Virus record (IMG/VR): IMGVR_UViG_2698536484_000025
Origin: a virus
Lineage: Duplodnaviria > Heunggongvirae > Uroviricota > Caudoviricetes
DNA: 37,558 nucleotides
Reading direction: 5' to 3' (one strand)
A program made the translations under genes and the position numbers. This document shows, in pieces, positions 5,342-24,416 of this stretch. How positions within the stretch are numbered: position 1 is the first letter of the stretch; each line of letters opens with the position of its first letter. The notes beneath the pieces were generated by a model. The model saw nothing but the letters and a program-made list of their open reading frames with translations, was not told where the DNA came from and did not search any database.

Positions 5342-5358
5342 ATATTTATTAGAGCAAT
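5342..5358 (-). promoter_or_regulatory. C1 operator-like site (16/17) in divergent intergenic region
   Basis: Plus strand atatttattagagcaat at 5342-5358, between the minus-strand uhr/hrdC/dmt operon and the plus-strand genes starting at 5440. Confidence 0.5.
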
Positions 5359-17667: not shown

Positions 17668-18264
17668 ATGGCTGTGATTCCAATGTCGTACTCCCCGGGT
17701 ACTGTCGCTCGTCGATTTTCGATCCTGGACGGAGTTACCATCCAGGGTGTGCTTTACCAGGTTATATGGGATTCCAAAACCCCATTTGCAGCTGTAATAG
17801 AGGCTGCGCCTTCTGTTATCGATGGTGATATGCGCCATAAGGTTGTCGCTACTCTTGAACTTCAACGTCGCCCGCAGCTTGAAGGCGTACTGGTAAGGAA
17901 GTTCTGGGAGGATAGCGATGTTGCCCAGATTGAAGGTATCGTGGTTGATGGAACCGTCCGGGATGTCGGTTTAGCTACTTTTGTTTACGAAACCGTAGCC
18001 TCAAAAGCTGGTGTTGTTTTGCTCAGTGATAATGAGCAATACGAAGGTGGAAAAGCTCTTTGGCAACACATCGCCCGTCGCTCTTCCGAGCTAAAAGTGT
18101 TTATCCTCGACACCGATGCCGCTCAGTATTACCCGTTTGACGGCGAACGTGTTTGCTATGACGGGGTAAGTATTCCTGAATCCGAGATATGGAGTGAACA
18201 CCCAGATCGAAGTAAGCATGGGGTTGTTCTGGTCGCTGAATCCATAATTGGAAAGGCGGCATAG
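17668..18264 (+). CDS. hypothetical protein
   Basis: ATG 17668 with AAGGGGGA 7 nt upstream (track ORF starts at 17632, too close to its SD). About 198 aa, no clear domain. Confidence 0.65.
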   Translation: MAVIPMSYSPGTVARRFSILDGVTIQGVLYQVIWDSKTPFAAVIEAAPSVIDGDMRHKVVATLELQRRPQLEGVLVRKFWEDSDVAQIEGIVVDGTVRDVGLATFVYETVASKAGVVLLSDNEQYEGGKALWQHIARRSSELKVFILDTDAAQYYPFDGERVCYDGVSIPESEIWSEHPDRSKHGVVLVAESIIGKAA

Positions 18265-18446
18265 CAGTAAAAAATTCCTTGCTCCTAAAAAGGGGAGAGG
18301 GCTAATCTACGTATGCTAAGCATAGATATGGCCTCAGATTAATGTTAAGCGTCTTGCAGGACGCGTAATGTTATCTGGGGCTTTCTTCTATCTGCTTGTC
18401 GGGTAATGCCTGAAGCAGATAGCCTCAAGCACCCGCAGCGATTGTA

Positions 18447-20469: not shown

Positions 20470-20510
20470 CTTTGCACTTAGAAAACGAAATTTATTAGAG
20501 CAAATTTTTC
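20470..20510 (-). promoter_or_regulatory. kilA-repL promoter with overlapping C1 operator (Op53-type, 16/17)
   Basis: Plus strand aaatttattagagcaaa at 20488-20504. On the minus strand the operator overlaps a -35-like TTGCTC with a TAAGTG -10-like 17 bp downstream. Confidence 0.7.
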
Positions 20511-20582: not shown

Positions 20583-21620
20583 TTAACCTATTGCTACTGG
20601 TTTTAACAAACCAGCATCAAGTAGCTTGCGAGTTAACCACTGCTGGCCTTTACCCGTTAATTGGGGCGTCAGCCGTATCTGGTAGCCATTTTCATCATCC
20701 AGCACCACTTCTTTCACCGTGAAATACCCGGCGTTAATGTACTGCTGGCGCGGTACGTTTTTGCGCGCACCAAAAGCCATGAGAATGCCGTTCTGGCGCA
20801 ACCATGAGAAAAGGGCGTTTTGCTTAAGTCCAACGATCTTTGCAAAGTTCCCGATCAGGATTCCATTAGCCACTGATACCCGGTCGGCAAAATCGACTTT
20901 AGGGGCTGCGGCCACCAGCTGTTGTTCCAGCTGCATTTTCTGTTCTGCCAACTCGGCAGCCAGGCGTAGAGCTTCTGGTAATGTTTGGGGGATCGATGGG
21001 GCAGGGGAGTTTGCCTGCTGCAATTCTTCCAGTTTGTCGATCAGCGAACGGCGGACAGCTTTTGATTCGCGCGCGGCGACTCGCATGGCTTGTTTGAAAG
21101 TCATGGTTATGACAAGCATTGATGTTTTGTTCATTTTTTCCACTACACTTTTTGTGTAGTGCTCACCATCAAGCTCATCGAGTATTTTTTCTATGAATTT
21201 GTTGTTCCGAACCTCTGGTTCCCCACATAACTTACGCGCTTCATTGACCATCTTTAACAGTGTCAGGCTGTCGATTGTGTCTCCGGTGTTGGGGATGATA
21301 TTCACGGCTGGTGCTGGCGTAGCTGACGTAACAGGTGCTGTTTTTTCAACATTCAAATTATTACCGGTCATTCTATGTGCCTCCTTTCTCATTTCTGCTG
21401 CCACTGTTGCGTAACGTAGACGTCCTTGTTCAATCAAATAATCCCTGATCTCGGCTATCAGTAGCCTGTTGATCACAGCCTTATCTGTTCGGGTATAAAA
21501 ACGTCTGGTTATCATGAAATAGTTAGCAATTGCGCCGGGGATCTCCCGTGTCGGCATACAGGCAGTATGCAAGGCGATCGCTTCGGCTATTTCATTACGG
21601 GTGACGAGAGGTGTTTTCAT
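20583..21620 (-). CDS. ant1: antirepressor Ant (Ant1, with in-frame internal Ant2 start expected)
   Basis: 345 aa; C-terminal domain paralogous to KilA C-terminus; start ATG overlaps icd stop (ATGA). Confidence 0.85.
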   Translation of the reverse strand: MKTPLVTRNEIAEAIALHTACMPTREIPGAIANYFMITRRFYTRTDKAVINRLLIAEIRDYLIEQGRLRYATVAAEMRKEAHRMTGNNLNVEKTAPVTSATPAPAVNIIPNTGDTIDSLTLLKMVNEARKLCGEPEVRNNKFIEKILDELDGEHYTKSVVEKMNKTSMLVITMTFKQAMRVAARESKAVRRSLIDKLEELQQANSPAPSIPQTLPEALRLAAELAEQKMQLEQQLVAAAPKVDFADRVSVANGILIGNFAKIVGLKQNALFSWLRQNGILMAFGARKNVPRQQYINAGYFTVKEVVLDDENGYQIRLTPQLTGKGQQWLTRKLLDAGLLKPVAIG

Positions 21621-21838
21621 AAACCCCCCTGAACGTCGGCAGAGAAGGGGAGGCTCCAGTAACTAAGTGAATTGCGCGAGTTAGTTGAAAAACGGGCAGT
21701 AAAAATGCAGGGGCCATCAGGCAATTGAGAGCGTGCTTCGTCTTCTGTTGCTGCGATAACGAAGTGATAGTGGTGTTTTTGGCAGGAGTAAAAGCGCCAG
21801 ATAAATTCAGGATGAGTAGGGGTAGGGATAGTAGCCAC
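21617..21838 (-). CDS. icd: Icd-like small protein (interference with cell division), translationally coupled to ant
   Basis: 73 aa; GTG start at 21838 with AAGGAGG 9 nt upstream; stop overlaps ant start. Confidence 0.7.
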   Translation of the reverse strand: MATIPTPTHPEFIWRFYSCQKHHYHFVIAATEDEARSQLPDGPCIFTARFSTNSRNSLSYWSLPFSADVQGGL

Positions 21839-21895
21839 AATGGCAGCCTCCTTTTGCTAATTTAAGGAGCTACCGCGTGAGGTTCCAATCTCAAT

Positions 21896-21976
21896 GGCGG
21901 TAGCACTGACTGGGTTGGAACTACCGGCGCAAAAGGGAACCGGCCTGCCTTTCGGCAGCCCAGCCAGCACTACCAT
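21896..21976 (-). ncRNA. c4: c4 antisense RNA (immI regulator); boundaries approximate
   Basis: Minus-strand segment between direct repeats a1b1 (plus 22053-22080) and a2b2 (plus 21850-21890). It carries CCCUUUUGC and GUUCCAACC, complementary to the GCAAAAGG and GAUUGGAAC elements, and folds into stems (CUGCC-GAAA-GGCAG; CCGG...CCGG). Confidence 0.5.
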
Positions 21977-22022
21977 TGATCTCGGAGCTATGTGCTACGT
22001 ATGGTTGTGCGATGGCATGACA

Positions 22023-22046
22023 CAAAAAAAGACGCTTTTGGCGTCT
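22023..22046 (-). terminator. hairpin plus U7 on the minus strand inside the immI leader (attenuator or terminator-like)
   Basis: Minus strand GACGCC-AAAA-GCGTC followed by TTTTTTT; lies between the a1b1 repeat and c4. Confidence 0.4.
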
Positions 22047-22173
22047 ATGTCGCCTTTTGCATTATCCGGGGTTCCAATCCCGGCATCCGTTTTACTAAGA
22101 TGCCTGTTTAGGATAAACCGAAAATGCATTAGCACGCAAGCAAGTTAATGTAGCATATGAAGCTAAAAAAATA

Positions 22174-22190
22174 AAATAATTAGAGCAACT
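22174..22190 (-). promoter_or_regulatory. C1 operator-like site (14/17), candidate immI operator (Op51-type)
   Basis: Plus strand aaaataattagagcaac; core ATTAGAGCAA conserved. Lies between immI and the divergent AT-rich island. Confidence 0.5.
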
Positions 22191-22335
22191 TGCAACCATG
22201 TAAATTATTTCTCTGGTAACTAAAATGTATGAGTTTAATTGATATGGGTCAAAGATTTTGACCATTGCATGGTGAAACTTTATGCTACAAAATGTTATTT
22301 TAAGGCGTTTTATCTGTGGCAGGAGATAGTTAATC

Positions 22336-22686
22336 ATGTCATCTGAACATGTTCGTAAAGGTGTAACAAATGCGAAATTCAATGAAGAGCAATCTAATAT
22401 TCTCTTTATTGAAATAGGAATTCTGTCAATACTGATAGGTTTAATGTCTAAATCATGGTGGGCCTTTGGCGGTTCTTTTCTTGGACTGATTTTTAGTTTA
22501 AGAATAAAATTTCTAGCAATACCATTGATGATTGTATTTAGCTTAGTATGGGGAGCTATTGGCTATAGTATTGGTACTTTGTTTGAATCAACAGCAGCAA
22601 GTATTGTTTTGGGGGTAATTGCTTTCCTGAGTGGTTTGGGTACTCATTTTGCTGCCGTGCAATGGGCAAATGATATTGCAGAATAA
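22336..22686 (+). CDS. small multi-pass membrane protein (AT-rich island gene 1)
   Basis: 116 aa; ATG 22336 with AGGAGA 9 nt upstream; three to four hydrophobic helices (ILFIEIGILSILIGLM; FLGLIFSLRIKFLAIPLMIVFSLVWGAIGYSIG; IVLGVIAFLSGLG). Confidence 0.75.
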   Translation: MSSEHVRKGVTNAKFNEEQSNILFIEIGILSILIGLMSKSWWAFGGSFLGLIFSLRIKFLAIPLMIVFSLVWGAIGYSIGTLFESTAASIVLGVIAFLSGLGTHFAAVQWANDIAE

Positions 22687-22708
22687 TTACAGATAAGAAG
22701 CGAAAAGA

Positions 22709-23185
22709 ATGAATATGAGATGGTTTTTATTATTTGTATCGTTAGTTTCAGCAGGAACATTTGCAAAAATTGATCCTCTACAATGGAATGTAATTGAAGA
22801 GAGAGGGGGGAGAGAATATACAATCCATAATCATAATGGTGATAAGATAAGTTTTTTATGTGATATGGGATTCATGTATGGTTCACCAGATAGTGCAGGT
22901 AGTTTAGGCTTGTTGCTAAGTTCGTCGAATAATAAAAAAGAGTATAATGCTGACAAGAATAAAATAGTATTAACTATAGATGGTGATCAATATCCTTTTA
23001 GCAATCTTGGATCAATGGTTGGAGATTCTTGGTGGTATGCCTTTTGGCAAGATGCAGCAGATTCAAATGCTAATATGATTGATGCTTATGTTGATAATGA
23101 AAAAATTGCTACATTCCCTCTTTCTGGGCTAAGTAAGTTGTATCAACAAGCCAAAATGGATGGATGTATTAAACGAGGCAAATGA
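22709..23185 (+). CDS. secreted or periplasmic protein with signal peptide (AT-rich island gene 2)
   Basis: 158 aa; N-terminus MNMRWFLLFVSLVSAGTFA-KIDP resembles a Sec signal peptide with an AxA-like cleavage site; Trp/Asp-rich C-terminal part. Confidence 0.75.
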   Translation: MNMRWFLLFVSLVSAGTFAKIDPLQWNVIEERGGREYTIHNHNGDKISFLCDMGFMYGSPDSAGSLGLLLSSSNNKKEYNADKNKIVLTIDGDQYPFSNLGSMVGDSWWYAFWQDAADSNANMIDAYVDNEKIATFPLSGLSKLYQQAKMDGCIKRGK

Positions 23186-23259
23186 TCTTTCTGTGTTAAA
23201 GATTAACGCAATCAATAAAACATTGGTTGCGTAATATTCTATTATATAAATGGAATAAT

Positions 23260-24294
23260 ATGACAAAAATTACTAATTCTAATGAGTTGAAGTTGCTGTA
23301 TAAACAGTCAGTGCTCATTCCATCATACAAAGATCACGTAGCGATCTTGCAAAAACAATTAGGAATAGAAAAACATTCTTTTCAAAATATGCCAAGATTG
23401 AATAGACAAGCTGTAATTAGTAACTCTCTTCGAAAACAATTGGCTAGTATACCGAACTTGGCTGGAATAGGCAGCAAGTATCGTGAACATATCGCGATTT
23501 TACAGAAACAGACTCAGGCTCTTTTCCCTCATGATGCAAATAGATATATTCAAATGCTAAGGAAACAGGCCGAAATAGCTATGCCATTACGAAAACAGCT
23601 TGAGGTGCTTAATAAGCAAGCTGGTTTAAATAACATGCAAGCGATACTTAAAGAATTACAACAAAGTGCAAGTTATAAAATAGATGTAAGCCAAGACATA
23701 AAGAAAGTACTAGATCACTATGCTAGAACAAGAAATGCTTCATTACATCAAATAATAGAGCAGGGGATTTCATCTATTGCGCAGGCTTATGCTGAAGGTG
23801 CTACTGAAACATCACACACCAAAAGTAATGTTCAAAATAAAGGATTAAATAAACCTAGCTCAAAGTTTGTTGATTCATTTAAAGAGCTTCCTTATCCACT
23901 GCAATGGTTACTAATGGTTATATTTTCTCAAGTTGTGTTTGGTGCTTTTATTGATTACGGAAAAGAGAAAACCTTGCTGGGAATACACAAGGCAGAATCA
24001 TATTTTATATCTCTGTTTGAGGATAAACCAATATCAAAACAACAATTAATTAAAGAAAACAAAGAAATTAGTTGGGAAGATCTCAATGGTTTTCGTTTTA
24101 TAACTGGTGAGAACGTAAGATTACACGTCAGTCCTTCTATAAATAGTGAGGTGATTGAATGCATTGGCAAAAATACTATAGTGGCTGTTTTAGATAAAAA
24201 AGATCGCCAATGGCTTTTCGTGCAGGTTAAATCAGGGGACGAGTTTATTACTGGATGGATTACACGAACATACACAAAGCCTCTTAAGGCTTGA
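23260..24294 (+). CDS. membrane protein: N-terminal K/Q-rich repeats, one TM helix, C-terminal SH3b-like domain (AT-rich island gene 3)
   Basis: ATG 23260 (track ORF starts at TTG 23227). Repeats HVAILQKQ / EHIAILQKQ / LRKQAEIAMPLRKQLEVLNKQ; TM LPYPLQWLLMVIFSQVVFGAFIDYG; C-terminus FRFITGENVRLHVSPSINSEVIECIGKNTIVAVLDKKDRQWLFVQVKSGDEFITGWITRTY is SH3b-like. Confidence 0.75.
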   Translation: MTKITNSNELKLLYKQSVLIPSYKDHVAILQKQLGIEKHSFQNMPRLNRQAVISNSLRKQLASIPNLAGIGSKYREHIAILQKQTQALFPHDANRYIQMLRKQAEIAMPLRKQLEVLNKQAGLNNMQAILKELQQSASYKIDVSQDIKKVLDHYARTRNASLHQIIEQGISSIAQAYAEGATETSHTKSNVQNKGLNKPSSKFVDSFKELPYPLQWLLMVIFSQVVFGAFIDYGKEKTLLGIHKAESYFISLFEDKPISKQQLIKENKEISWEDLNGFRFITGENVRLHVSPSINSEVIECIGKNTIVAVLDKKDRQWLFVQVKSGDEFITGWITRTYTKPLKA

Positions 24295-24392
24295 ATTTTA
24301 TCACCGTATCTTGGGGCTGGGTGTTGATGACGATGTGCTACTTGAAGTACTTGGGTTTTTTAACGCAGCATCTGAAATGTGTAGACTGACCG

Positions 24393-24416
24393 GTAACAAA
24401 TGACAACTCGTAGAAT
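24393..24416 (+). promoter_or_regulatory. candidate late promoter: GTAACAAATGAC box, 6 nt, then TAGAAT hexamer, overlapping an 11-bp perfect palindrome
   Basis: Same architecture as 12102 and 17566. Palindrome ctcgtagaatc (24406-24416) / gattctacgag (24430-24440) overlaps the -10-like hexamer. Confidence 0.4.

Follow-up and report, generated by a model that had tools for sequence, protein, structure and literature searches.

A four-helix membrane protein gene in the sim slot of a P1-like phage-plasmid, tentatively read as an exclusion or defence factor

The locus and its control signals

The stretch of DNA analysed here, 37,558 nucleotides long and referred to throughout as the window, belongs to a P1-like phage-plasmid, and the position of the region around g1 can be read off against the P1 and P7 records with their annotation. 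At the place where P1 carries simA-simB-simC and P7 carries upf50.5/upf50.0, the window has a different three-gene cassette, consisting of g1, g2 and g3. To the left of this slot lies the immI module (C1 operator Op51, c4 RNA, icd, ant1/2) on the minus strand, and to the right the late operon pmgC-tub-pmgB-sit, with LPsit/pmgC as the slot edge. The slot is annotated as superimmunity in the P1 record, and simABC is described as one of the eight regions of P1-like phage-plasmids that are both hypervariable and low in GC (PMC9603915). In addition, P1 forms plaques without need of the sim genes (PMC10695390), and the phage-plasmid papers treat the sim region as variable and no more. The features of the slot and its left edge are as follows.

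21893-21980, minus strand: C4 antisense RNA (Rfam, 76.7 bits), just 5' of the island
22025-22103, minus strand: isrK-type RNA (Rfam, 58.3 bits), just 5' of the island
22100-24394 (approximate), no strand: low-GC island (34-38% GC, against 47-51% in the flanks) that fills the sim (superimmunity) hypervariable slot and has g1 as its first gene
22173-22189, minus strand: C1-operator-like site GTTGCTCTAATTATTTT with 3 mismatches, placed where P1 has Op51/Oc4 and marking the edge of the immI region
22247-22263, no strand: perfect 17-bp palindrome GGTCAAAGATTTTGACC, overlapping the -35 element of promoter-like sites on both strands
22258-22286, plus strand: sigma-70 promoter-like site (TTGACC, 17-nt spacer, TATGCT; 9/12), a consensus match only, 50 nt 5' of g1
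22321-22325, plus strand: Shine-Dalgarno core AGGAG, read from the sequence, 10 nt 5' of the ATG
22336-22686, plus strand: g1 coding sequence, ATG start, 116 aa; four-helix inner-membrane protein, predicted N-in/C-in; PHROG 15014
22709-23185, plus strand: g2, exported YfjT-family protein (PF27224), starting 22 nt after g1 and lying in the same recombination block
23206-23232, plus strand: terminator-like hairpin with an 11-bp stem, just 3' of g2, at the breakpoint that swaps g3 for DUF4760
23260-24294, plus strand: g3, 344 aa, with one transmembrane helix (about 212-234) and an SH3_3 domain at the C-terminus; can be exchanged as a module of its own

DNA homology to P1, P7 and phage Ro157c2YLVW ends at 21811 and picks up again at 24387-24395. 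When the 3.5 kb around g1 are compared with P1, P7 and many P1-like phage-plasmids, only the flanks align (26% coverage). Out of 5426 complete E. coli genomes, 37 match the 3.5-kb region over its full length, on plasmids of about 95 kb and almost always with an identity of 99% or more. An earlier note, made from the DNA letters, had placed g1 first in an island, and this placement is borne out both by composition (34-35% GC, with 47-51% in the flanks) and by the gap in P1/P7 homology from 21811 to about 24390. Since homology to P1 breaks at 21811, the immI (c4) allele of the window differs from those of P1 and P7. Elsewhere in the window, C1-operator matches with 0-1 mismatch lie at 2066-2082, 5342-5358 and 20488-20504 (minus strand), the last at a position corresponding to the P1 kilA/repL operator; if all matches with up to 3 mismatches are counted, chance would give 0.18. 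A sok antitoxin RNA at 18260-18434 on the minus strand (Rfam, 89.7 bits) implies a hok/sok-type module near the repL/kilA region, and three consecutive tRNA genes occupy 1157-1402, also on the minus strand (Rfam tRNA, 42-75 bits).

For the slot in P1, the annotation of that phage predicts sigma-70 promoters upstream and no late promoter. In the window, promoter-like sites across the region show no excess over shuffled sequence. The 17-bp palindrome at 22247-22263 is present as a single copy in the window, with 0 expected by chance, and may be a candidate operator or other regulator binding site.

A membrane protein family spanning phyla

An exhaustive HMMER search places relatives of g1 in 297 clusters at 50% identity (E<=1e-3), 135 of them at E<=1e-10, compared with 13 relatives returned by a word-indexed search. 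Family members are mostly 112-122 aa long and align end to end. Because the representatives of all 297 clusters match g1, most of them at full length, and because of the pattern of substitutions between alleles, g1 is a real gene under purifying selection: the two E. coli alleles are separated by 10 synonymous and 3 non-synonymous differences (pN/pS about 0.09), and divergent pairs with unsaturated dS give dN/dS values of 0.08-0.3. The earlier note also credited the gene with a strong Shine-Dalgarno sequence, which is true of the AGGAG core and less so of its 10-nt spacing, which is slightly long.

Members occur in Deltaproteobacteria, Rhodanobacter, Pseudomonas, Ignavibacteria, Bacillota MAGs, Vibrio and Salmonella, as well as on an Anoxybacillus phage-plasmid and on Moraxella bovis plasmids. 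Within E. coli, g1 is carried by 78 of 5426 genomes, and 79 of its 80 copies reside on plasmids. Two homologues, one on a 6-kb contig binned as Bacillota (L013, 4569-4934) and one on a 1.27-Mb Pseudomonas MAG contig (L015, 4986-5351), have three differences over the approximately 70 N-terminal residues shown, a near-identity that would fit either a recent cross-phylum transfer or a mis-binned contig. The plasmid sequence CP148548.1, taken up as a divergent island on the strength of 74% identity in tblastn, was set aside: it carries this very island (97.8% identical DNA), with indels, and its annotation is fragmented.

An identical protein is present in RefSeq as a 'hypothetical protein' (WP_000093550.1), and nothing was found in the literature under WP_000093550. 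The sole PHROG match of g1 is PHROG 15014, aligned over positions 1-116 of 116 with E=1.3e-75; because this family is without functional annotation, the membership says nothing on function. Scans of g1 against Pfam (E<=1), NCBIfam and PADLOC gave no match, Pfam searches with 66 family members brought up scattered single weak matches with no member assigned to a Pfam family, and a profile run against PDB sequences had 0 matches at E<=10. In the GenBank phage collection, tblastn with g1 as the query turned up no match, though PHROG 15014 contains g1. Thus the family is without a name or a described function and its gene is annotated as hypothetical only, yet its kind, that of a small membrane-protein "moron" in an exclusion slot of a prophage, is familiar.

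The protein had been described beforehand as small and multi-pass, made entirely of hydrophobic helices with short loops. Four Kyte-Doolittle hydrophobic segments (GRAVY +0.88) and an AlphaFold2 model built on a 66-sequence alignment (pLDDT 97.2, pTM 0.83) agree with the multi-pass description; the model has helices at 3-38, 41-54, 58-83 and 86-115, joined by turns of 2-3 residues, so that the short loops stand as well. What does not stand is the word "entirely", since the N-terminal 20 or so residues are hydrophilic and highly conserved (with the motif VRxGxTQAxFNE, they are among the most conserved of the family) and the last 10 or so are polar, the C-terminus being acidic, not basic. A multi-pass topology is predicted, with which the positive-inside pattern is consistent: over the family, K+R per sequence averages 3.0 at the N-terminus and 1.0 in loop 2. 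The averages for loops 1 and 3 are 0.29 and 0.03, and these two loops carry next to no charge or are acidic. Moreover, the domains fused to family members are all of cytoplasmic types, with zinc ribbons and TPR at the N-terminal end and HNH endonuclease, LPD7, DUF6308 and zinc ribbons at the C-terminal end. From the charge bias, the terminal fusions and the model together, g1 is predicted to be N-in/C-in, with both termini in the cytoplasm, almost no periplasmic exposure and its polar conserved residues mostly on the cytoplasmic side.

In the 66-sequence alignment, G35 is present in all 66 sequences and R7, S40, W41, W72 and D113 in at least 90%. Two conserved polar residues lie close to where helices 1 and 4 end on the cytoplasmic side, E26 in 57 of the 66 (otherwise Q) and H104 in 55 (otherwise N), and small-residue motifs run along the helices (G45/G46/G50, W72-G73-x2-G76-x3-G80, G100/G102). 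An acidic residue and a histidine, both conserved and close to the cytoplasmic leaflet, combined with glycine-zipper packing, would suit a protein of general membrane physiology, such as a small channel, a transporter subunit or a stress protein (handling, for example, protons or metal via E26/H104), that rides on mobile elements incidentally. The spread of the family over phyla and the placement of some homologues amid housekeeping genes (L006, L017, L046) point the same way. Nevertheless, the distribution is patchy, as the 78 of 5426 E. coli genomes and the almost exclusively plasmid-borne copies illustrate, and residence in hypervariable and defence loci, together with fusions to nucleases and zinc ribbons, fits such a role poorly. 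We consider it rather unlikely.

The earlier note had also proposed a holin-like role, and some properties of g1 would be at home in a holin, a lysis-timing protein or a small membrane toxin: it is small, very hydrophobic and phage-borne, and has a good ribosome-binding site. Foldseek gave no specific match for g1 (PDB E>1, BFVD E>0.4), but one weak BFVD match is annotated as a holin (E=0.96). However, neither Pfam nor PHROGs has a holin match to g1 at E<=1, hhalign probabilities stay below 1% (0.3% against P1 LydA, 0.2% against LydC), and the C-terminus is acidic. The gene neighbours of g1 are the immI region, g2, g3 and pmgC, not a lysis cassette; no endolysin lies beside g1 homologues in any of about 20 contexts, and homologues are found in chromosomes and plasmids without phage genes. 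In particular, pEC13-3, which is 99.8% identical over the 3.5-kb query region, has two holin-family proteins (lydC/lydA) and a LydB homologue at the canonical locus about 15 kb away. The slot is, furthermore, dispensable for P1 plaques (PMC10695390), with sigma-70 promoters and no late promoter predicted. Because holin profile matches are absent and the element has lydA/lydC elsewhere, lysis is a most improbable function for g1.

Exchangeable partners within the slot

The protein encoded by g2 bears the RefSeq name 'YfjT/YkfB family phage-associated protein', has PF27224 precomputed on its cluster, and is 26% identical to K-12 YfjT (blastp, E=7e-7). Its structure model, made from a shallow alignment (pLDDT 52.8), is unusable for the idea of a lysozyme or transglycosylase inhibitor, and the literature has nothing functional on YfjT/YfjS. 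The N-terminal half of g3 (window 23260-23640), predicted to be cytoplasmic, contains the repeated motifs HVAILQKQLG, HIAILQKQTQ, YIQMLRKQAE and PLRKQLEVLNKQ, which suggest an internal repeat or a coiled coil.

The arrangement of g1 and g2 is that of an operon, with a 22-nt gap between them and the hairpin after g2, and both lie within a common recombination block, which makes for a looser tie between the two. This block, 21503-23179 up to the end of g2, is shared at 97.2% DNA identity with p1493-4, where an opposite-strand DUF4760 gene then takes the place of g3; p1493-4 is part of a second E. coli allele group of 43 records with 95-99% DNA identity. Other P1-like elements combine the same parts differently. 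A Salmonella P1-like plasmid has, in order, a SimA-like gene (222 aa), a g1 homologue (72% identity) and a YfjT-like gene, and a P1-like contig from IMG/VR has DUF4431, a g1 homologue (58%) and a YfjT-like gene on the opposite strand. In pCFSAN004176P_03, SimA-long is accompanied by a YfjT-like gene and an SH3 gene (68% identical to g3) without g1; phage Ro157c2YLVW has SimA-long and a YfjT-like gene only, again without g1; and in p7_33_80A-2, g1 is cut down to its last 106 bp beside an intact g2. Since the combinations of g1, g2 and g3 vary in this way among P1-like elements, the sim slot is best described as a mosaic of exchangeable modules, of which g1 is one optional module. Outside the enterobacterial P1-like elements, the g1 homologues in the contexts inspected have neither g2 nor g3 as partners. 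As far as gene order can tell, g1 is linked partly to g2, not at all to g3, and obligately to neither.

Two side observations concern the same slot. The composite arrangement in p7_33_80A-2 (L058, 1220-4050) consists of SimA-long, a YfjT-like gene, the 106-bp 3' remnant of g1, another YfjT-like gene (g2) and DUF4760, and so has tandem YfjT paralogues beside a decayed g1. In P1 itself, simA (52 aa; L002, 3239-3397) is 93% identical over 41 aa to the Ro157c2YLVW protein (L055, 1802-2449) and 56% identical to the Salmonella one (L004, 5234-5902); by these alignments it seems to be what is left, at the 5' end, of a longer gene whose exported product of 215-222 aa other P1-like elements still encode in full. 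The N-terminal 110 or so residues of SimA-long resemble the C-terminal part of the DUF4431 proteins that precede g1 homologues.

These arrangements bear on the earlier suggestion that g1 is a membrane anchor for the other two products. Because g1 homologues stand alone and homologues of g2 and g3 occur without g1, an obligate anchor role is argued against, and the decayed g1 beside g2 and the periplasmic loops of 2-3 residues lend it no support. A broader version would make g1 the membrane component of one envelope complex with g2, perhaps including the transmembrane helix of g3. In addition to the close spacing of g1 and g2 within one recombination block ahead of a terminator-like hairpin, YfjT-like genes adjoin g1 homologues in three further P1-like arrangements (L004, L029, L051), small proteins with signal peptides lie beside several distant homologues (L007, L014, L040, L047-L049), and a comparable trio, ypjK-yfjS-yfjT, exists in CP4-57 of K-12. 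On the other hand, g2-like and g3-like genes are found without g1, plasmid records with YfjT-like genes number 185 and those with g1 only 68, and the majority of g1 homologues have neither partner. Loops this short would leave almost no surface for a periplasmic partner, the exported flanking proteins are unrelated to one another, and YpjK is not homologous to g1. One envelope complex is unlikely in our judgement.

Genomic contexts, the favoured reading and known systems

Neighbourhoods of g1 homologues elsewhere were sampled in about 20 contexts, inspected by hand and with no background control. Those of note are listed here by context.

L013: Mrr-STAND NTPase and NucC-like nuclease (defence genes)
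L015: NERD-UvrD, PADLOC C3a187 (defence genes)
L016: Cas3c and WYL regulator (defence genes)
L010: HEC-04-like ATPase (defence genes)
L009, L031, L040: integrases
L044, L050: phage- or plasmid-like contigs
L052: Gram-positive (Anoxybacillus) phage-plasmid, with the homologue between a recombinase and AbiEi/terminase
L053: Moraxella T4SS plasmids
L006, L017, L046: ordinary-looking chromosome

These contexts are suggestive of a family that is accessory, conflict-related cargo. A PADLOC scan of ten additional neighbours gave a generic PLD/DrmC-like match only. A tie to SH3 proteins through an upstream 115-aa exported protein, conserved in a marine clade, was dropped when Pfam gave no hit. In a marine gammaproteobacterial integrative element (L031, 3636-4997), the g1 homologue closes a compact run of three genes; those before it (221 and 224 aa) are without a Pfam family, and one has a GEAAGFRG motif, which we take to be reminiscent of family-4 uracil-DNA glycosylases.

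Orphan genes on mobile elements and plasmids, frequently adjoined by exported proteins, could also encode immunity-type proteins, and g1 might then shield the inner membrane from a membrane-targeting toxin, such as a pore-forming bacteriocin, a CDI/T6SS effector or a product of the element itself. Pore-forming-colicin immunity proteins are of similar size and have a 3-4 TM architecture, which g1 resembles by analogy. However, no recognisable toxin gene lies next to a g1 homologue in any inspected context and no Pfam immunity family matches. Moreover, cytoplasm-facing residues conserved across phyla and fusions to HNH and zinc-ribbon domains are unfit for a toxin-specific shield, and we regard this possibility as improbable.

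The reading that we favour, tentatively and at somewhat less than an even chance, is that g1 is a prophage-expressed membrane exclusion or defence factor transcribed together with g2. An abortive-infection-like component was among the possibilities raised in the earlier note, and such a defence-like membrane role is plausible from position and neighbourhood; because g1 sits in the sim slot of this P1-like prophage, its most likely role would be to protect the host cell at the membrane, and not to lyse it. According to this model, g1 and g2 would form a two-gene unit in the sim slot, adjoining the immunity region, and would be expressed in the lysogen from their own sigma-70 promoter. At the cytoplasmic membrane, g1 would guard the lysogen against incoming phage or foreign DNA, either by superinfection exclusion at the DNA-entry step or by a membrane-level abortive response. 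Its working surface would consist of conserved residues that for the most part face the cytoplasm (R7, N16/E17, E26, H104, W110 and D113), together with tight glycine-mediated helix packing.

Several points weigh against the exclusion or defence reading. Profile, sequence and fold searches found no similarity of g1 to any characterised exclusion or defence protein, and PADLOC v2, which includes Kiwa KwaA, Zorya and the CBASS/Pycsar TM effectors, gave no match at E<=1 for g1, g2 or g3. The association with defence islands comes from the 20 or so contexts inspected by hand, which have no background control, and several homologues lie in ordinary chromosome (L006, L017, L046). The promoter is a consensus match only, in a region without an excess of such matches. 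Furthermore, exclusion proteins are usually narrow and fast-evolving, so that conservation across phyla is at least as much in keeping with a general biochemical activity.

The favoured reading also has a wider version. The g1 family might be a hitherto unrecognised single-gene, phylum-spanning membrane module of anti-mobile-element immunity that blocks or senses DNA entry at the cytoplasmic membrane. Its conserved cytoplasmic face would do the work and would, in fused variants, bring HNH nucleases or zinc ribbons that bind nucleic acids to the entry site; P1-like prophages would have taken the module up in their sim slot where others have SimC-type exclusion. We offer this as speculation of low probability.

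If the exclusion or defence reading is true, g1 would represent a new compact family (116 aa), confidently modelled and ranging from Proteobacteria to Bacillota, and the P1 sim slot would be a combinatorial hotspot that shuffles SimA-long, g1, YfjT-like, SH3, DUF4760 and SimB/C modules. P1-like phage-plasmids are common carriers of E. coli resistance genes, and their exclusion repertoire would therefore affect which elements coexist. Should g1 be just a generic membrane protein, it would be a "moron" of the ordinary accessory sort. With a broad, conserved family and a confident model, it makes a good experimental target.

Among known systems, the ypjK-yfjS-yfjT genes of K-12 CP4-57 are alike in that a gene for a small membrane protein precedes genes for exported ones, one of the YfjT family among them, in a prophage-like element. 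However, YpjK (78 aa) was rejected as an analogue of g1 since there is no similarity between the two, and the window cassette has no lipoprotein. T4 Imm and F TraS are small hydrophobic inner-membrane proteins, encoded by mobile elements, that block the entry of incoming DNA and are narrow and element-specific. Compared from general knowledge and Pfam, g1 is likewise small, hydrophobic, targeted to the inner membrane and encoded by a mobile element, but it has no Pfam match at E<=1, and its family spans phyla and has conserved cytoplasmic residues. Lambda RexB, which is expressed in lysogens and is the membrane partner in Rex abortive infection, is also a small multi-pass (four-TM) inner-membrane protein whose gene lies beside a prophage immunity region. 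In contrast to Rex, there is no RexA-like partner here and g1 homologues are mostly alone; hhalign gives 0.2% for g1 against RexB, and none of g1, g2 and g3 has a RexA/RexB Pfam match.

The closest comparison by position is with P1 SimABC. Sim is exported and processed, and the Sim proteins have a single N-terminal hydrophobic segment, whereas g1 is a four-helix integral protein with scant periplasmic exposure and has no blastp match to SimA, SimB or SimC. Nevertheless, the window cassette occupies the same slot, between Op51/c4-icd-ant and LPsit/pmgC, and like simABC, which is non-essential for P1 lytic growth, it is a low-GC accessory cassette of envelope-targeted proteins.
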